From the IMG/VR virus record IMGVR_UViG_3300037474_000073: a stretch of 64,000 nucleotides of DNA, one strand, 5' to 3'. Positions within the stretch are counted from its first letter, which is position 1. Each line of letters starts with the position of its first letter. The translations under genes and the position numbers were made by a program. Below are positions 2 through 63,442 of this stretch, one piece after another. The notes beneath the pieces are model-generated. The model worked only from the letters and a program-made list of their open reading frames with translations. It was not told where the DNA came from and made no database searches. This DNA comes from a virus.

Positions 2-2011
2 GTCGGTCCGCACCGCTGGTGGTCGTTCGCGTTCGTGATGGTCGGCTGGTTCGTCGCCGGTCTGTGGACGCTGACCCGTCTCAACGTCACCCGGCAGGAC
101 CCGCGCGCGCCCGAGCAGAAGGAGGACACGGTCCTCGAGAAGCTCGGCCTCGGCGGCTGGGGTTTCAAGGTCAAGGAGAAGGTCACCGACCCGAAGACCG
201 GCGAGCCGATCCGTACGGTCGTCGAGGCGAAGCACGCGCCGGGCGACACGTTCGACAAGCTCGCGGGTGCCGTCGGGGCGTTCGAGTCGCTGGCCGGCGC
301 ACCCGCCGGCCTGTCCGACGCGAACCCGACCGACGCGGCGAACCGGTCGGTGTTCACCATCCAGCACCGCGATGAGCTGAAGTACCGCCTGCCCTACGGT
401 CCGCTCAGTAACGTCGGCGGGTCGATTCAGGACCCGATCACGTTCTCGATCTATCAGGACGGGAACCCGGTCTGGTGCTACCTGGCGGGTCACCCCGCCG
501 GCGAGTTCCCGCCTACCGGTTACGGCTTCATGGGCATGACCCGCACCGGTAAGACCGTCGGCGAGAACGAGATGATGACCGAGGTCATCAGCCGCCGCGA
601 CGTGGTGATCCTGTATCTGAACCAGGCGAAGGGCCTGCAGGACATCCGGCCGATCATTCCCGGTGTCGAGGCGGCGATCCTCGCCGAGGACGCCTCCGAT
701 CAGGGCGTCGGCGAGTACCGGGCCGCGCTGGAGATGGTCAAGACGATCATCACCTACCGGCAGGGCACGCTCGCCCGGTTCGGCAAGTCGGCGTGGGATC
801 CGTCGTGCTTCTCGTCGCCGCCGGTCCGGCGTATGGCGGACGGCACGGTGCAGCAGATGGAGCCGATGCCCGCCCTGATCGTCCACGTCGGCGAGGCGGA
901 CTCGATCCTCGAGCGCGCGGGCGAGATCGCAACGTACGTAGCGAGCAAGGGCCTGTCGACCGGCATCATCGCGGGCTGGTCGCTACAGCGCGCCTCGGCC
1001 GAGTTCATGCCGACGGGCCTGCGGTTCAACGTTGGCGCGTGGTGGTGTTTCGGCTGTGGCGACGAGGTGTCGGCGGGATTCGCTCTGACCGACGACGTGA
1101 TCAGGGCCGGTGCGCACCCCGAATACTGGAAGCAGGAAAAGCCCGGCTATCACTATTTCGTCGGTCCCGGCACGCCTCAGGCGCGTAAGGCGAAAACCGC
1201 TCGGACGATGAGCGGTGAGAATCCCGACCAATTGCAGAACGAAATGTTGCGCCGCAACCTCGAGAATGCACCGCAGATGGCGAAGCTCGATCGCGGCTCG
1301 GCCAAGTCGACCGGCATGCCGGGCATGCCGAGCAACCGATGGGACCTGTTGGTCAAGAACACGAACCGGATCCGCAACGAGCTGCTCGACGGTCAGGCTC
1401 CCGCAACTCCGTCCGCAAACATGACCGCAAGCGACCGCAATCTGACCCCGCAAACGGAGGAGCACGTGTTCCGCAAAGAGCCCGCAACTGTGCCCACGTT
1501 CACCGCAACCGAACCTGCGGACGACGAGACCGCAGACCGGATGCAGTTCGAGGTTCAGTTCGACGACGAGGTTCGCGGTGTCCGCGAGGTTGAGGGCGTC
1601 GAGCTCTACCCCCGCAACGACGACGGCACGACGGACGAGTCGGTCGACCTGAGCCGGCCGCTTCCGGAGCCGCCGGCCGGCGACGACACGTCGTTCGAGG
1701 AGGACCGCCCGGACGCCCCGAGCCGGGAGGTGGCGATCCTCGCCCTCCACGACGTGCTTCGGAAGCTGATCGAGCGGGAGGATCTGCGCGACCCGGCCGA
1801 CCCGAACGGCAACACGGTCATCATCCAGGTCTCGGACATCTACGGTCCGTACAAGTTCAAGAGCCGCCCGTGGTTCTCCGGTGAGCTGAAGGCACTGGCC
1901 GGCGGGCAGCGCACGCCGCCGCCGAGTCTGTCCCTGGAGCGCGCCGACGACCTCGGGCTGAAGGCGGGCAAGTACCGCCTGCGGCGGATCCCGGACGGTG
2001 ACGACGAGTGA
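2..2011 (+). CDS. FtsK/SpoIIIE-family (TraB-like) dsDNA translocase, 5'-truncated by window edge
   Basis: Frame is open back to nt 2. The track Met at 35 lies inside a TM-like segment (FAFVMVGWFVAGLW). Walker A GMTRTGKT, Walker B-like ALIVHVGEAD. Stop TGA 2009-2011. Confidence 0.8.
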   Translation, partial: VGPHRWWSFAFVMVGWFVAGLWTLTRLNVTRQDPRAPEQKEDTVLEKLGLGGWGFKVKEKVTDPKTGEPIRTVVEAKHAPGDTFDKLAGAVGAFESLAGAPAGLSDANPTDAANRSVFTIQHRDELKYRLPYGPLSNVGGSIQDPITFSIYQDGNPVWCYLAGHPAGEFPPTGYGFMGMTRTGKTVGENEMMTEVISRRDVVILYLNQAKGLQDIRPIIPGVEAAILAEDASDQGVGEYRAALEMVKTIITYRQGTLARFGKSAWDPSCFSSPPVRRMADGTVQQMEPMPALIVHVGEADSILERAGEIATYVASKGLSTGIIAGWSLQRASAEFMPTGLRFNVGAWWCFGCGDEVSAGFALTDDVIRAGAHPEYWKQEKPGYHYFVGPGTPQARKAKTARTMSGENPDQLQNEMLRRNLENAPQMAKLDRGSAKSTGMPGMPSNRWDLLVKNTNRIRNELLDGQAPATPSANMTASDRNLTPQTEEHVFRKEPATVPTFTATEPADDETADRMQFEVQFDDEVRGVREVEGVELYPRNDDGTTDESVDLSRPLPEPPAGDDTSFEEDRPDAPSREVAILALHDVLRKLIEREDLRDPADPNGNTVIIQVSDIYGPYKFKSRPWFSGELKALAGGQRTPPPSLSLERADDLGLKAGKYRLRRIPDGDDE

Positions 2012-3538: not shown

Positions 3539-3943
3539 GTGGGGGTCATGGGACGGATCAGCGGCGACGAGTGGCACTCGCTGGCACGGCGGGAGGCGGC
3601 GCGCGAGTTCGGGAAGCGCCATTACGGCTCGTACGTCGTCAGCCAGTTCGCGCCGCACATCGCGCTGATCGTGCTGGCCGGTGCGGCGGGATTCGGCGCC
3701 TGGTGGCTCTACTCGCGCATTCACGCCGCCCTGTCCCGCCCCTCCGTCACGACCGAGGTCGCACAGGTCCACTCGGGCGTGCCGGTCTGGATCTGGTTCA
3801 CCGGCGCCTTGCTCGCGGTCGGCACGGTCGTCGTCTACCGCCCCGGTCGCGTCCCGTCGATGCCGGGCGTCGCGATTGCGAAGGTCGCGATCGTGCTCGT
3901 GCTGTGGCTCGCCTGGGTCGGATTCCTGCTCGCTCAGATCTGA
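3539..3943 (+). CDS. membrane protein, about 3 TM helices
   Basis: GTG directly after the TAG of the previous gene (alternative ATG at 3548). Hydrophobic segments IALIVLAGAAGFGAWWLY, VWIWFTGALLAVGTVVVY and IVLVLWLAWVGFLLA. Confidence 0.6.
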   Translation: MGVMGRISGDEWHSLARREAAREFGKRHYGSYVVSQFAPHIALIVLAGAAGFGAWWLYSRIHAALSRPSVTTEVAQVHSGVPVWIWFTGALLAVGTVVVYRPGRVPSMPGVAIAKVAIVLVLWLAWVGFLLAQI

Positions 3944-4254: not shown

Positions 4255-4710
4255 ATGACTCAGAACGAGGTGACCGCGCGGTACGTGCCTGAAGTGCGCA
4301 CGATCGTCGGCACCGACCTGGAACTGACCCAGGCGCTACGGCGCCAGAGCGCACTCGGCCGGCTGCTCACGCCGCCCGGCGAAATCAAGCCGCGGCGCGT
4401 CGAGGACGGTCGCTGGGCGATCACGGTCCGGCTGGCCCGCCCGCTGACCGCGCAGGAGGTTCGCGACCTGACTCCGACGTGGTGGAAACGCCACCGCCGG
4501 CACGTCGGTTACGCCGCCCTCGCGCTCACCCTGCTCGCCGTCATCGGCGGCATCGTGACGCTGTTGATCAGCCTGTTCACCGCGGTCGCCGACAACGGCT
4601 CGTACCTGCTCGCTGGCGCGATCGGCCTCAGCGCCGTCTTGTTCGCCGCAGTGAAGAAAGGTCACCCCTGTACCGGTCTGCACTGCGCGGGATGCAAGGA
4701 CAAGCACTGA
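4255..4710 (+). CDS. membrane protein (151 aa), two TM helices, Cys-rich C-terminus
   Basis: Trimmed from track ORF 4123. ATG 4255 follows CCGAGAGAGGGAGACGAG. TM segments YAALALTLLAVIGGIVTLLISLF and LLAGAIGLSAVLFAAV. Ends CTGLHCAGCKDKH. Confidence 0.55.
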   Translation: MTQNEVTARYVPEVRTIVGTDLELTQALRRQSALGRLLTPPGEIKPRRVEDGRWAITVRLARPLTAQEVRDLTPTWWKRHRRHVGYAALALTLLAVIGGIVTLLISLFTAVADNGSYLLAGAIGLSAVLFAAVKKGHPCTGLHCAGCKDKH

Positions 4711-4721
4711 GTGCACAACGA

Positions 4722-4755
4722 AACGGCCCGCCACCTCATCGAGGGGCGGGCCGTT
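4722..4755. terminator. bidirectional stem-loop between convergent genes
   Basis: AACGGCCCGCC-12 nt-GGCGGGCCGTT, an 11-bp stem, between stop 4710 (+) and stop 4776 (-). The stem sequence recurs at 34528-34566. Confidence 0.65.
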
Positions 4756-4775: not shown

Positions 4776-5051
4776 CTACCTTAGCGAATCGGATGCGACC
4801 TCGTCCTCGGGCGCGAGCGTGACGGACGGGACGGCACTGGCGCCCTTGCCGCCGATCTTCGAGGTGATGAGGTTCTTGAGCAGCGAGAACGCCGTGACGA
4901 GCCCGGCCGCGCTCCACAGCTTCCAGTTGTCCAGCTTGAGAACGTCCTGCCAGCCGACCGCGTCGGAGGTGGCGAGACCGAGCACGGATACGACGAACGT
5001 CGCGATCACGCGTTCGGCGATGTCCTTGGCTACGGGGAACTTGCTTGCCAT
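4776..5051 (-). CDS. holin-like membrane protein (r1t-holin-like pattern)
   Basis: 91 aa, AAGGAGA RBS. Pattern AERVIATFVVSVLGL...W..W...AAGLVTAFSLLKNL resembles the Phage_r1t_holin family. Last gene of the lysis cassette. Confidence 0.55.
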   Translation of the reverse strand: MASKFPVAKDIAERVIATFVVSVLGLATSDAVGWQDVLKLDNWKLWSAAGLVTAFSLLKNLITSKIGGKGASAVPSVTLAPEDEVASDSLR

Positions 5052-6218: not shown

Positions 6219-6673
6219 TGGTCGGTTCCCATCGGCCCCAGATCGTGAGTGATCTCCTCGGTCGACGTCGGCCGCCGCGGAGGCTCTGACCACCCGCTGA
6301 TGATGCCGATCATGGTAGCGAACACGAGCCAGACAATGCCCGATACCCAGCCCCGATCAACACCCCCGAACATCCAGGACGTGATCCCCACGAGTCCCCA
6401 GATGACCTTTTGGCAGATCGCCAGCGAGTAGCCGAGGGCATCGTGGCGTAGGAACGCCTGAAAGATCAGGAAGATACCCACGACGATCCATCCCCCGCCC
6501 CACACCCAGAGCGGGAGGTAGTGCTGGCGCCACACGGTCGCCGCGGATGTCGCCTGCTCGGTGGTCGGCGAGCTGATCGACCATCCGAAGATCATGTCGA
6601 ACACGCCGAGGATGAGCAGGATCGACCCGCGGCGACCGAAGCGGGACCGGGACAGAAACCGGAGGTTGAACAT
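6215..6673 (-). CDS. 4-TM membrane protein, holin-like
   Basis: 152 aa with four hydrophobic segments, immediately downstream of the glycosidase-type endolysin gene. Confidence 0.55.
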   Translation of the reverse strand: MFNLRFLSRSRFGRRGSILLILGVFDMIFGWSISSPTTEQATSAATVWRQHYLPLWVWGGGWIVVGIFLIFQAFLRHDALGYSLAICQKVIWGLVGITSWMFGGVDRGWVSGIVWLVFATMIGIISGWSEPPRRPTSTEEITHDLGPMGTDQ

Positions 6674-33862: not shown

Positions 33863-33900
33863 ACTGTACCCCCACCCCACCGACCGCGCAAGGAGCTTGC
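33863..33900 (-). promoter_or_regulatory. conserved promoter/operator module
   Basis: Minus strand: palindrome GCAAGCTCCTTGC (33888-33900) containing the -35 TTGCGC, a 17-bp spacer, then GTGGGGGTACAGT (33863-33875) with the -10 TACAGT. Confidence 0.6.
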
Positions 33901-43396: not shown

Positions 43397-43447
43397 ACTG
43401 TACCCCCACGTACCGAGCAGCACAAGCCATCCGCGCAAGTTCTTTGC
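43397..43447 (-). promoter_or_regulatory. conserved promoter module (variant)
   Basis: Minus strand: GTGGGGGTACAGT (43397-43409), -35 TTGTGC (43420-43425) at a 17-bp spacing, and a degenerate palindrome GCAAAGAACTTGC (43435-43447). Confidence 0.5.
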
Positions 43448-54301: not shown

Positions 54302-54756
54302 GACTCGACCCGCATCAGCCGCTCGGCGATCTCGTGCTGCAAGAACGTCTTGAAGTCGGGATAGACCTCGATGTCAGGGTGACAGTGGAACACGTGCTCG
54401 CGCGGTCCGACGACGATCAGGCGCATCGGGGCGTCACTGAGCGAAGCCCGGAAATCAGCGTGCATCAAGGCGACGCCGTGCTCGACGTGTCGACCGCCAC
54501 GACCGCCCTGCCCGGTGAACGACACGATCGCGTCTGCGGTACCGAGGTCGGAGATGTCCCGAGCGCCGTGCGCCCAGACCTCGGCGGGATGCGCCGCGAT
54601 GTAGTCGGACGTAAAGCTGTTGTCGAGTCCGGGTGTGACCTCGCGGTGCCAGGACGACACGACCTCACCGCAGCCCGCCGCCTCGAGTACGTCGGCGTTC
54701 TGCGTCATCTCGGCGTGGCGCAGGTATGCGCTCGCGAAGTAGTAGCGGTTGCGCAT
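54298..54756 (-). CDS. nucleoside 2-deoxyribosyltransferase / DNPH1-like protein (putative)
   Basis: Trimmed to the ATG that overlaps the upstream stop (TGATG). RYYFASAY ... GGRGGRHVEHGVAL resembles the family's Rossmann-like core. Weak call. Confidence 0.4.
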   Translation of the reverse strand: MRNRYYFASAYLRHAEMTQNADVLEAAGCGEVVSSWHREVTPGLDNSFTSDYIAAHPAEVWAHGARDISDLGTADAIVSFTGQGGRGGRHVEHGVALMHADFRASLSDAPMRLIVVGPREHVFHCHPDIEVYPDFKTFLQHEIAERLMRVES

Positions 54757-54950
54757 CACGCGGCCGTCTCGACCGGCAGGCTGAGCCGCTCGCTGGTCTG
54801 CTCGTCGGTCTCTTCGAGCAGGAGGTCGAGCATCGCGGTCAGGTACGTCGACCGGTCGATGCCGAGCCGGTCGCACTTCTCGGCCGCCTTCTGCCAGCGG
54901 TCGGTGGGATAGCGCCAGTTCTGTTTGGGCGTGCCCCTGGTCGTAGCCAT
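54756..54950 (-). CDS. ribbon-helix-helix (CopG/Arc-like) DNA-binding protein
   Basis: Trimmed to the ATG after GAGAGAGGTGACCAC. 64 aa. WRYPTDRWQKAAEKCDRLGIDRSTYLTAMLDLLL fits a strand-helix-helix pattern. Confidence 0.5.
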   Translation of the reverse strand: MATTRGTPKQNWRYPTDRWQKAAEKCDRLGIDRSTYLTAMLDLLLEETDEQTSERLSLPVETAA

Positions 54951-54973
54951 GTGGTCACCTCTCTCATGCAATG

Positions 54974-55007
54974 GATGTACCCCCACTATAGCGCGCTGTA
55001 CCCCCAC
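54974..55007 (-). promoter_or_regulatory. tandem GTGGGGGTACA boxes upstream of the RHH gene
   Basis: Minus strand: GTGGGGGTACAGC (54995-55007) and GTGGGGGTACATC (54974-54986), 21 bp apart. No GCAAG-N3-CTTGC palindrome nearby. Confidence 0.5.
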
Positions 55008-58977: not shown

Positions 58978-59075
58978 CGTCTCTCACTCTCGGGTCGGCG
59001 ACCCATCCGGATCGGCTGCCGCACCACGCAGGCGAGCAGCCGGATCCAGAACGGGTCGGAATCGTAGGCGATCAT
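58974..59075 (-). CDS. micro-ORF (33 aa)
   Basis: MIAYDSDPFWIRLLACVVRQPIRMGRRPESERR. TGATG overlap upstream and ATGA overlap downstream. Confidence 0.3.
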   Translation of the reverse strand: MIAYDSDPFWIRLLACVVRQPIRMGRRPESERR

Positions 59076-59440
59076 CAGAACGGGCAGGGGCGGTCGGTCG
59101 GGTCCACGATCTCCCACGGTTCGGCGACGCGCGGGATCAGGTGGATCGCGGCGGGGTCGGCGATCTTCCAGCCGACTCCCTCGAACGTCGCGATGCGAGC
59201 CGCCATGAACACGGAGGGGTCGGTGCCGCGCGGGATGGGGAACTCGAGGGTCGTGCCGACGAACTCGCCGCCCTCGCGCATCTGCACTCGCGGGTAGGCG
59301 GCGATGACCCAGTGCTCGGCGTCGTACCGCGAGAAGGTCACGGTCTCGTACACCTCGCCCATCGGGCGGAACATCGTCACCTGGTCGTCGGGGGTCATGA
59401 CCTCGGCCTCGTTATCCCAGCCGATCATGTTCTCGCTCAT
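59075..59440 (-). CDS. hypothetical protein (121 aa), first gene of the early operon
   Basis: ATG after ACGAGAGAGAAACCGAGG. 36 nt separate the -10 (end 59477) from the ATG. Confidence 0.6.
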   Translation of the reverse strand: MSENMIGWDNEAEVMTPDDQVTMFRPMGEVYETVTFSRYDAEHWVIAAYPRVQMREGGEFVGTTLEFPIPRGTDPSVFMAARIATFEGVGWKIADPAAIHLIPRVAEPWEIVDPTDRPCPF

Positions 59441-59476
59441 GCTGACCTCGGTTTCTCTCTCGTTGTGCTGAGGTCA

Positions 59477-59553
59477 ACTGTACCCCCACGGGGCCTCACG
59501 TGCAAGCGGCTTGTGACAAGCTACTTGCACAATCGGGTCGGCGAGTGCATGCT
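59477..59553. promoter_or_regulatory. divergent promoter/operator region
   Basis: Leftward: GTGGGGGTACAGT (59477-59489 on plus) with -35 TTGCAC (59500-59505) at 17 bp. Two palindromes: GCAAGCGGCTTG 59502-59513 and ACAAGCTACTTGC 59516-59528. Rightward: -35 TTGCAC 59525-59530, 17 bp, -10 CATGCT 59548-59553. Confidence 0.6.
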
Positions 59554-59559
59554 GAGGAC

Positions 59560-59898
59560 ATGACAGACATCCGGATCCAGACGACCGGGCGCGACACGCT
59601 CGTGACCGGCGCCCACCGCGGTACGACGCTGATGCGACTGCTCTCCCGCGCCCTCGGCGACGCCGGTCCGCTGGACCGGTTCATCGCCAGTCGGCGTGTG
59701 CCGGGCGACCGCTGGCACCGCTGGTCGGACATCGCCGACGACATCGCGACCGCGACCGGTGAACGCTTCAGCGGTGAGTCGGTCCGCCAGTGGGCGGTAA
59801 CGCTCGGCATCCCGCAGGACACCGGTAAGAACGACGGCGCGATCGCGCGCGGTGCGTTCCTCGACGCGATCAGCAAGCAGGGCATTCCGTACGTCTGA
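59560..59898 (+). CDS. helix-turn-helix regulator candidate (112 aa), leaderless
   Basis: Trimmed to ATG 59560, 6 nt after the -10. HTH-like WSDIADDIATATGERFSGESVRQWAVTLGI. Confidence 0.55.
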   Translation: MTDIRIQTTGRDTLVTGAHRGTTLMRLLSRALGDAGPLDRFIASRRVPGDRWHRWSDIADDIATATGERFSGESVRQWAVTLGIPQDTGKNDGAIARGAFLDAISKQGIPYV

Positions 59899-60156
59899 GC
59901 TTTCCAGGTCAGCGGCGAACGTCCACATGGGCGGCGTGAGCCAGCGTCCGACGCGCGTGGTCCCGGTGCGTGACCGGTTACGGGGCACTAACTCCATACT
60001 TCAAGGCGCGGGTCGTCGGTGTTTTCCGCACTCATATCCACCGCAAGGCGGCCGATCCGGAACTGCAATTCCGGGGAGCCTGTCCTGCCCGCGCCGTGAC
60101 CCGACGAGAGCCGGGTCGGATCAGGGAGCGTGCCGGTCCGGCTCGGCTCTTTCCAT

Positions 60157-60194
60157 GCAAGCTACTTGCGTGATCCGCCACGTGGGGGTACAGT
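60157..60194 (+). promoter_or_regulatory. conserved promoter/operator module
   Basis: GCAAGCTACTTGC 60157-60169 containing -35 TTGCGT (60166-60171), a 17-bp spacer, then GTGGGGGTACAGT 60182-60194. ATG 60201 lies 6 nt after the -10. Confidence 0.65.
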
Positions 60195-60200
60195 AGGGGC

Positions 60201-60449
60201 ATGACGAAGACAGAGGTCGCCCGACTTGCCATCCTCTCGGTTTCCGAAGATCGGGACAGGGTGCGCCCCTCACACCTGACGATCATGGAAATCTGCCGGA
60301 CGCTCAAGCTGTCCACCGATGAGGCGGTTTCTCTGCGGGCGACCGTCGTCACCGACTGGCTGCTCGAAGAGAACGAGGAACGTCGCGACCTGCTTCATCT
60401 CGCTAAGACCGTGATCAACCAGTACGCCCGCGACTACAGCCTTCGCTGA
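60201..60449 (+). CDS. hypothetical protein (82 aa), leaderless, possible HTH
   Basis: No room for an SD. Contains IMEICRTLKLSTDEAVSLRATV. Confidence 0.6.
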   Translation: MTKTEVARLAILSVSEDRDRVRPSHLTIMEICRTLKLSTDEAVSLRATVVTDWLLEENEERRDLLHLAKTVINQYARDYSLR

Positions 60450-60458
60450 GAGGTTTAC

Positions 60459-60854
60459 ATGAACCGCCTTAAGTCGTCAGGCTCGTGCCGTATTTGCCGT
60501 ACCTGGCTCGAGGGCGAGTGGGCGAACTCCAGAATCGCAGCGGTGCGCGCCGAGATCGAACGGCAGATGGCGGCCGGCATCTGTGACGGATGCCAGCGTA
60601 AGCGGCAGCTTGCCGCGCGGGAGTACATCGCCGCCTCGGATGACGTGCGCCTGTGGTTCCAGGTGCTGACCGCGCTCGGTTACCGCACGCCCGAGCAGTA
60701 CGCGAACGGTATGCCGGACGCCATGATCACCCGTGTCAAGACCGCCGAGGAGAGGTGTATCTCCCTCGGCATGTGGTCTCGGCATCGGGGAGCGGACGTC
60801 CCGGAACGGTTCCGGGAGCCGCCGAAGTATCGACCGAGGGAGACGCAATGCTGA
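60459..60854 (+). CDS. zinc-ribbon-like protein (131 aa)
   Basis: Contains CRIC ... CDGC. Confidence 0.55.
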   Translation: MNRLKSSGSCRICRTWLEGEWANSRIAAVRAEIERQMAAGICDGCQRKRQLAAREYIAASDDVRLWFQVLTALGYRTPEQYANGMPDAMITRVKTAEERCISLGMWSRHRGADVPERFREPPKYRPRETQC

Positions 60855-63348: not shown

Positions 63349-63412
63349 ACTGTACCCCCACCCCCTAAGTTATGCAAGCTACTTGCGCAGACGGGTAGGG
63401 TGGGGGTACAGT
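63349..63412. promoter_or_regulatory. near mirror-symmetric divergent promoter/operator
   Basis: ACTGTACCCCCAC 63349-63361, 12 bp, GCAAGCTACTTGC 63374-63386, 13 bp, GTGGGGGTACAGT 63400-63412. -35 TTGCAT (leftward, 17-bp spacer) and TTGCGC (rightward, 18 bp) lie within the palindrome. Confidence 0.65.
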
Positions 63413-63442
63413 AGTCGTATCACCGAGAGAGAGCAGGACACG

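Follow-up and report, generated by a model that had tools for sequence, protein, structure and literature searches.

A stretch of 64 kb of viral DNA (IMG/VR record IMGVR_UViG_3300037474_000073, hereafter the window; the contig measures 67.5 kb, the remaining 3.5 kb lying outside) carries, between a leftward early operon and a rightward gene for a small basic protein of 112 residues, a real and conserved two-way control region of an uncultured ~67-kb phage with 67.5% G+C and a presumed actinobacterial host. Two divergent promoters, each with a short dyad over its -35 box, face away from one another in this region, and the same dyad stands at the same place in at least five promoters on both arms of the genome, which therefore points to a genome-wide regulon and not to a local CI/Cro toggle. 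The reading we favour, and to which as a whole we give an even chance, is that the dyads are operators of a dimeric phage repressor, that the adjacent 112-residue protein is the most likely binder, and that the two make up a regulon of one repressor and many operators.

The start sites, binding, repression and identity of the binder in this proposal are predictions from sequence. A strong sigma-A-type promoter (TTGCAC, 17 nt, GTGGGGGTACAGT) would fire leftward from ~59470 into the early recombination/replication arm, while a weak promoter (TTGCAC, 17 nt, CATGCT) would fire rightward to give a leaderless, monocistronic mRNA for the 112-residue protein. Dyads of the form GCAAG-N3-CTTGC would be placed at -38, here and at at least four further early promoters on both arms, at the same distance from the same -10, and a dimeric phage repressor bound to them would compete with sigma region 4 for the TTGC bases. 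Were the 112-residue protein to bind the dyads through a helix-turn-helix (HTH)-like helix pair at residues 55–82, it would regulate its own gene and shut down the dyad-bearing early promoters, giving a one-repressor, many-operator regulon with CI-like gene placement.

A divergent control region and its reused promoter module

The motifs described in this section, their spacing, copy number and conservation, and the structure of the genes around them were read directly from the window and its relatives. Dyads O1 (GCAAGCGGCTTGT, 59502–59514) and O2 (ACAAGCTACTTGC, 59516–59528) each share 4 nt (TTGC/GCAA) with one -35 box, an overlap that the original prediction had noted, and the divergent layout is conserved in relatives. 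Relative to the predicted starts, the centre of O1 lies at -38 (leftward) and -52 (rightward), and that of O2 at -38 (rightward) and -52 (leftward); the inner arms at 59510–59520 (CTTGT in O1, ACAAG in O2) serve no promoter. The core CAAG-N3-CTTG (CAAGNNNCTTG) occurs five times in the window against 0.23 expected, a count that none of 100 shuffles reached, and the extended -10 box GTGGGGGTACAGT (the G-box), allowing up to two mismatches, occurs eight times against 0.76 expected. The two are joined in a module of constant architecture, a dyad followed after 12 (once 13) nt by a G-box, and in four related phages 19 of 25 G-box modules carry the dyad at this fixed distance of 12–13 nt from the extended -10, which sets its centre at -38, over the TTGC of the -35. 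A short conserved site is thus present in many genome copies far above chance, and is placed so as to block early promoters. The original prediction had described a local switch, a description that does not survive the finding that these dyads recur at no fewer than five promoters spread over the two genome arms.

Elsewhere in the window, a one-way module at 60157–60194 (plus strand; perfect dyad GCAAGCTACTTGC, 12 nt, G-box) is predicted to drive a leaderless 82-residue gene whose ATG lies 6 nt after TACAGT, and another at 33863–33900 (minus strand; dyad GCAAGGAGCTTGC) a leaderless 69-residue gene. At 63349–63412 a single dyad (63374–63386) is common to the two G-box promoters of a two-way module. 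In the module at 43397–43447 (minus strand) the proximal dyad is degenerate and a second one, at -52, has one mismatch; the adjacent 13-mers of this module, ACAAGCCATCCGC then GCAAGTTCTTTGC, stand upstream of the G-box at -38 and -52, the geometry found at 59502–59528. G-box copies without a dyad are located at 54974–55007 (boxes at 54974 and 54995). In many module copies the ATG follows TACAGT by exactly 6 nt, sometimes 7.

Relatives were found through a protein collection and its contig index only, which gave four homologues of the 112-residue protein at ~64% identity, 31 representatives after clustering at 50% and 48 sequences when searched with a profile, all metagenomic and of ~100 residues. 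The loci studied form clade A (the window, L002, L005 and L006), clade B (L008, L011, L012 and L013) and clade C (L009/L010), plus L007. Neither a blastn match for the region nor a tblastn match for the protein was present in 50,697 phage records, the module pattern had no match in IMG/VR, where the protein pattern gave one spurious 18-residue match (L001), and scans of metagenome and genome contigs with the protein alignment and the module pattern were both empty, as were searches for the protein family and the module in 185,579 reference genomes (one per prokaryote species). By these comparisons the protein appears to found a small, metagenome-only family. Synteny is strict in all listed loci, with the small gene divergent from an operon that ends in ERF, mostly with YqaJ and RNase_T, and at least nine phages of three clades retain the small gene in this divergent position.

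Reading the sequence from 59200 to 60100 recovered every element proposed for the two promoters. On the minus strand the -35 hexamer TTGCAC (59500–59505), in a position shared with 18 module copies, lies 17 nt from an exact copy of the G-box (59477–59489, one of the eight in the window) containing the -10 hexamer TACAGT at 59477–59482; comparison and alignment show GTGGGGGTACAGT to be invariant at the homologous place in L002, L005 and L006. Because the module rule leaves 6 nt between the -10 hexamer and the start, we infer a leftward start at ~59470 and a leader of 30 nt (59441–59470, minus strand) with a GAGG Shine-Dalgarno at 59446–59449 and the motif GAGAGAGA; the leader block TCTCTCTC is conserved in the four-phage alignment. 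The first gene of the operon (59075–59440, minus strand, from the list of open reading frames, with its ATG at 59440) encodes a 121-residue acidic protein of unknown function with 0 Pfam and 0 PHROG matches, and has orthologues in the same position in L002, L005, L007, L008 and L009. It is followed by a YqaJ exonuclease gene, an HNH-like gene, an RNase_T/DnaQ-like gene and ERF, in that order, and Pfam matches confirm the YqaJ, RNase_T and ERF domains, so the exonuclease/ERF/DnaQ operon of the original prediction stands.

The rightward promoter consists of TTGCAC (59525–59530, plus strand; the homologous hexamer is TTGCGC in L002, L005 and L006), 17 nt, and a weak -10, CATGCT (59548–59553), without a G-run box, from which 6 nt lead to the ATG at 59560. 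The composite TTGCNN-17/18-CANNNT-5..8-ATG has only two occurrences in 64 kb, and CATNNT at 17–18 nt from TTGCNN is kept in nine phages of three clades. In the four phages of clade A, CATNNT-6/7-ATG is retained and the conserved N-terminus begins at that ATG, the ATGs upstream being out of frame in the window and L005; the -10 therefore ends 6–7 nt before the true start, with no Shine-Dalgarno at a working distance. Conservation of TTGCRC-17-CATNNT-6/7-ATG makes a leaderless mRNA likely, and transcription of the small gene would probably start at the A of ATG 59560, 90 bp from the predicted leftward start. The claim of a leaderless gene is thus a probable one, given the N-terminus conserved from this ATG in four phages and the 6-nt rule at many strong modules. 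A +1 ATG or GTG (RTG) is both required and enough for translation in mycobacteria, where about one quarter of transcripts are leaderless (PMC4633059). The 112-residue start was called independently on a Logan contig, and a longer reading frame from GTG 59500 (132 residues) was ruled out, its extension crossing the dyads and not being conserved in relatives.

The gene (59560–59898, plus strand), probably monocistronic, belongs to a unit made of the predicted leaderless start, a 258-nt 3' region and a terminator-like hairpin (60106–60151, plus strand; ~19 bp, then UUUCC) that closes the unit just before the next module. The hairpin stem is retained with changed, compensatory bases in L002 (~6430–6466), L005 (~3646–3682) and L006 (~611–653), with a short UUUCC and no long U-tract.

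The layout in clade A reads ACTGTACCCCCAC, 12 nt, GCAAG-N3-CTTGY, and then TTGCGC, 17 nt, CAT(C/G)AT, 6–7 nt, ATG; across the four aligned phages no change is seen in the G-box, the dyad arms CAAG..CTTGC, GCATNNTG or the start ATG, whereas other positions drift. The number of dyads varies, with two in the window and L006, a single one for both -35 boxes in L005, and one plus a degenerate second in the rightward spacer in L002, so that the pairing of palindromes is not borne out as a conserved trait. Clade B has CTTGCGCAAG with TTGCGC, 18 nt, CATNNT, ahead of a leadered gene with a strong Shine-Dalgarno, and L012 of this clade has a near-palindrome with one mismatch, CTTGCGCAAC. Clade C has TTGCCAAT-N3-ATTGGCAA-N5-TTGCCAA with TTGCCA, 17 nt, CATGGT, in which an extra half-site completes the dyad without promoter use; this palindrome motif occurs nowhere else in 10 kb. 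In all, a palindrome lies over the -35 of a TTGCNN-17/18-CATNNT promoter in eight of nine phages (the window, L002, L005, L006, L008, L009, L011 and L013; L012 is the ninth, and L007 is outside the count), and on this comparison the weak CATNNT promoter appears to be a family trait and the GCAAG-N3-CTTGC regulon to be specific to clade A.

In clades B and C, the G-box beside the leftward gene points rightward (L008 4895–4912, L011 5402–5415, L012 4899–4911, L013 4903–4916 and L009 4925–4937), and the small regulator gene has a long leader with a strong GGAAGGAGGG Shine-Dalgarno. The roles of strong and weak promoter may therefore be swapped in these clades relative to that of the window.

The 112-residue protein

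The product of the rightward gene, our candidate regulator, is a basic protein (isoelectric point 9.7) predicted to fold into five helices. An AlphaFold2 model built from the 48-sequence alignment (predicted local distance difference test, pLDDT, 85.6; predicted template modelling score 0.76) is all-helical, with helices at residues 23–35, 38–46, 55–66, 72–82 and 94–106; a five-sequence alignment had given a pLDDT of 49. Helices 55–66 and 72–82 are joined by a 5-residue turn into an HTH-like pair, and the family shares the motif W..IA..L..TGE.vT.e.vRqWA.ryGIP, which we take to resemble the HTH_17 motifs of excisionase/MerR type. The HTH label is only a sequence-pattern inference, drawn from the helix pair, the family motif and the basic charge.

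The protein and its relatives had no sequence match in Pfam, PHROG or the PDB (the Pfam search including 35 family members), a PDB profile search with the family returned noise only, and single family members gave sub-threshold Pfam matches to HTH_33, HTH_psq and HTH_91 (E 0.01–0.08). The original prediction had spoken of an HTH protein; with none of these sequence matches and no significant fold match for a confident model, the protein is not demonstrably one. The putative recognition helix 72–82 reads SVRQWA in all five proteins of clade A and has another sequence in clades B and C, a change that seems to parallel that of the palindrome by clade but is too thin to serve as evidence of covariation.

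Operators, paired -35 boxes and alternative binders

The arms CAAG/CTTG show no variation among 18 aligned modules of clade A and are as informative as the -10, the distal arm matching the proximal one in information (1.5–2.7 bits per position), whereas the bases of the N3 and of the 12-nt spacer are close to random. Five one-way modules (window 60157 and 33888, L002 6468, L005 3685 and L006 665) have a perfect distal arm with no promoter facing that way, and the 12-nt spacers beside the retained distal arms have diverged to ~3 of 12 identities (~25%) across four phages. Arms lacking a promoter partner are also seen in the inner halves of O1 and O2 and in the first TTGCCAAT of clade C. The distal arm being kept in one-way modules, a dimeric protein site is favoured over a by-product of two -35 boxes, and we consider it probable, from these patterns of conservation, that the dyad is a protein-binding site of some kind.

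As to what a bound protein would do, we lean towards occlusion and away from activation: four of the six -35 bases lie within the site, and an extended -10 close to consensus is already present in the strong modules. Extended -10 boxes like GNTANANT are near consensus for corynebacterial and mycobacterial promoters. A class II-type activator overlapping the -35 might instead turn on the module promoters, the weak CATGCT above all; a centre at -38 lies near the positions from which class II activators act, and the poor -10 of the rightward promoter might need help. Such an activator nevertheless seems very improbable, since the strong modules carry GNTANANT-like boxes and dyad-less copies exist at 54974 and 54995, and since the bases covered are those that sigma must read.

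Several points weigh against dyads that serve as operators of the 112-residue protein. The half-site is the -35 core TTGC, so an inverted TTGC/GCAA is partly expected wherever promoters diverge, and clade B has the half-site in reversed order (CTTGC-GCAAG), an order explained no less well by a -35 constraint than by a conserved protein specificity. The arm centres are merely 8 bp apart, short for a classical HTH dimer, and a scan for the E. coli-type consensus called 0 promoters here, the hexamers being of the actinobacterial/high-GC Gram-positive TANNNT type and not TTGACA/TATAAT, a promoter type on which we judge such a scan to say little. By sequence the protein matches no HTH family, and its model gave nothing at E<=0.001 in Foldseek searches of the PDB (best E 4.2) and BFVD (best E 0.68), while several other conserved small proteins of unknown function, such as the CxxC protein at 60459–60854, are available as alternative binders. 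Lastly, as no integrase or partition gene was found among the ~50 reading frames scanned, nor a prophage copy in the reference genomes, a maintenance state needing a repressor is unsupported.

The identity of half-site and -35 core is central to a reading with no dedicated regulator at all, in which the dyads would be the back-to-back -35 hexamers of a reusable two-way cassette, the one-way copies would be decayed forms of it, and the 112-residue protein, being without an HTH match, would do something else. True two-way copies, with one dyad for two G-box promoters, do exist (window 63349–63412; L002 10042–10104; L005 6683–6745 and 8974–9036; L006 3764–3826), and the palindromes of clades B and C are likewise built from TTGC/GCAA. 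However, the distal arm has stayed perfect in the five one-way modules even though the distal -10 and spacers have decayed or been replaced by a terminator, conservation reaches past the hexamer core to the G/C at the arm ends, and neither the inner arms of O1 and O2 nor the first clade C half-site have a promoter to belong to. We regard such a cassette as a rather unlikely explanation of the dyads.

The same evidence for operators would hold if the dyads were bound by another conserved small phage protein (the CxxC protein or a ribbon-helix-helix (RHH)-like one) or by a host regulator, and the 112-residue protein, which has no recognised DNA-binding domain, had a different role. A 13-bp dyad with 8-bp arm spacing suits RHH tetramers, as formed by MetJ- and CopG-like proteins; in the window and L002 the G-box promoters of the RHH-like gene have no dyad, so that it would escape the regulon; and the CxxC protein is conserved in a distant clade. 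Yet clades B and C, in which the clade A dyad is absent, still conserve the RHH-like strand KQN(W/F)RY, and the 112-residue gene is the only one with a palindrome on its own promoter in all clades examined, with palindrome and helix 72–82 both changing by clade. With regard to a host regulator, the dyad motif together with the G-box was not found in the 185,579 reference genomes, a search that speaks to the combined motif and not to a host regulon of the dyad alone. A binder other than the 112-residue protein is in our estimate possible but unlikely.

Among the individual candidates, the RHH-like 64-residue protein (54756–54950) was down-weighted because its presumed DNA-reading strand KQN(W/F)RY is kept in clades B and C, where the clade A dyad does not occur. 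The G-box, equally conserved, appears a better partner for it than the dyad, and, box and strand both being conserved in all clades, the protein may read the box itself. The RHH-like gene, of 64–81 residues, is always found behind paired dyad-less G-boxes (window 54756–55007, L002 811–1063, L008 19–316 and L009 174–469), both of which end in C instead of the -10 T in the window.

The CxxC...CxxC protein (window 60459–60854, L009 6494–6802, in the rightward arm), of ~100–130 residues with a zinc-ribbon-like N-terminus followed by AAREY and no family match, is a possible further DNA-binding protein. Two others were set aside as dyad binders, a C2H2 zinc finger, which is accessory and present only in the window and L005, and the 82-residue protein behind the 60157 module, whose gene gives way to unrelated ones in relatives. 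The position directly after the terminator and module at ~60157 is a variable slot, with the 82-residue protein in the window (60201–60449) and unrelated proteins of 85–89 residues in L002 (6512–6781), L005 (3729–3998) and L006 (737–994), while the promoter is orthologous.

Known regulatory systems, lifestyle and minor features

The layout was originally likened to a CI/Cro-type switch, and of this likeness the divergent promoters with overlapping dyads remain, while neither a CI-type repressor nor a Cro counterpart was found and the operators are not a graded set of three. As in lambda, the regulator gene is divergent from the early operon, the operators overlap the (predicted) promoters, the regulator promoter is weak and the regulator mRNA is predicted to be leaderless, as is the lambda cI mRNA from PRM (PMC10491246). 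Unlike lambda, the region encodes no CI-type (Xre/HTH_3 + S24) protein, and no Cro-like partner heads the opposing operon, the 121-residue orthologues having no HTH-like pattern; the dyads number one or two, against three graded operators in lambda, the dyad also occurs at four or more other promoters, and the ~50 reading frames and the reference genomes searched gave no integrase and no prophage copy, respectively.

In the Streptomyces phage phiC31, repressor c acts at conserved inverted repeats located at many similar early promoters genome-wide. The likeness is that of a high-GC actinophage (here presumed) with a short inverted repeat reused at many early promoters, implying one repressor with many operators, whereas the dyad here is 13 bp and not 17 bp long, phiC31 has an integrase, and no sequence relation was detected by tblastn or blastn against the 50,697 phage records.

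The Cluster A mycobacteriophage L5 encodes a small repressor, gp71, with 20–30 operator/stoperator sites of 13 bp, including one at the early lytic promoter, and within the cluster the site motif and the repressor co-vary between lineages (PMC6550527). Many 13-bp sites over the genome and one small (here candidate) repressor are common to both systems; in contrast, the sites of Cluster A lack symmetry, follow the direction of transcription and for the most part lie inside units as elongation blocks, while those described here are symmetric and always at promoter -38, and the systems share no homology. By analogy, the logic of the region appears closer to the one-repressor regulons of phiC31 and Cluster A than to lambda. 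In conjugative plasmids of Streptomyces, kor repressors (TraR/KorA) tame the toxic expression of TraB (PMC4447253), but TraR is a GntR-type protein of ~240 residues that uses direct 14-bp repeats, compared with 112 residues, an unclassified fold and dyads here.

A Pfam scan of ~50 open reading frames of the window identified SSB, a beta-clamp-like protein, two DNA methylases and a DUF3987 protein besides YqaJ, ERF and RNase_T. There was no integrase, in agreement with the original prediction, nor a partition protein/ParA or a Xre/CI-type repressor among the ~50 frames scanned, and no prophage copy of a relative or of the module in the 185,579 reference genomes. Lysogeny is thus unsupported, and a role in shutting off early genes during a lytic cycle is just as conceivable for the regulator. 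A bolder version of the repressor reading would make the 112-residue protein a new family of DNA-binding fold and the master repressor of every dyad-bearing early promoter on both arms, at once CI-like and kor-like, allowing a non-integrated, plasmid-like carrier state in an integrase-less tailed actinophage; this we think doubtful.

The general plan, in which two divergent promoters carry dyads over their -35 boxes and a small regulator controls its own gene, belongs to the textbooks; as it stands the finding is therefore a solid annotation and not a surprise. If the favoured reading is true, the region holds a compact, fully specified regulator-operator pair (a 112-residue protein, a 13-bp dyad, and a strong and a weak actinobacterial promoter, one of them leaderless) from a lineage without a cultured member, and would show how a phage lineage times or silences its early genes. 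The module would also be a ready-made, repressible two-way promoter part for high-GC use.

Two minor features of these loci concern leaders and the control region itself. Leadered genes behind module promoters have a purine motif, CGAGAGAG(A), 10–20 nt 5' of the start codon, as in ...aacgagagagaaaccgaggtcagcATG; it is found in the window at 59452–59460 (minus strand), 63421–63432 and 54951–54965, and in leaders of L002, L005, L006, L007 and L008, and, kept as it is across clades, may be an unusual ribosome-binding or regulatory element. In L007 the divergent control region, with the early operon on one side and the small gene on the other, has two tRNA genes inserted in it, Glu-CTC (4675–4746) and Ser-AGA (4840–4910).

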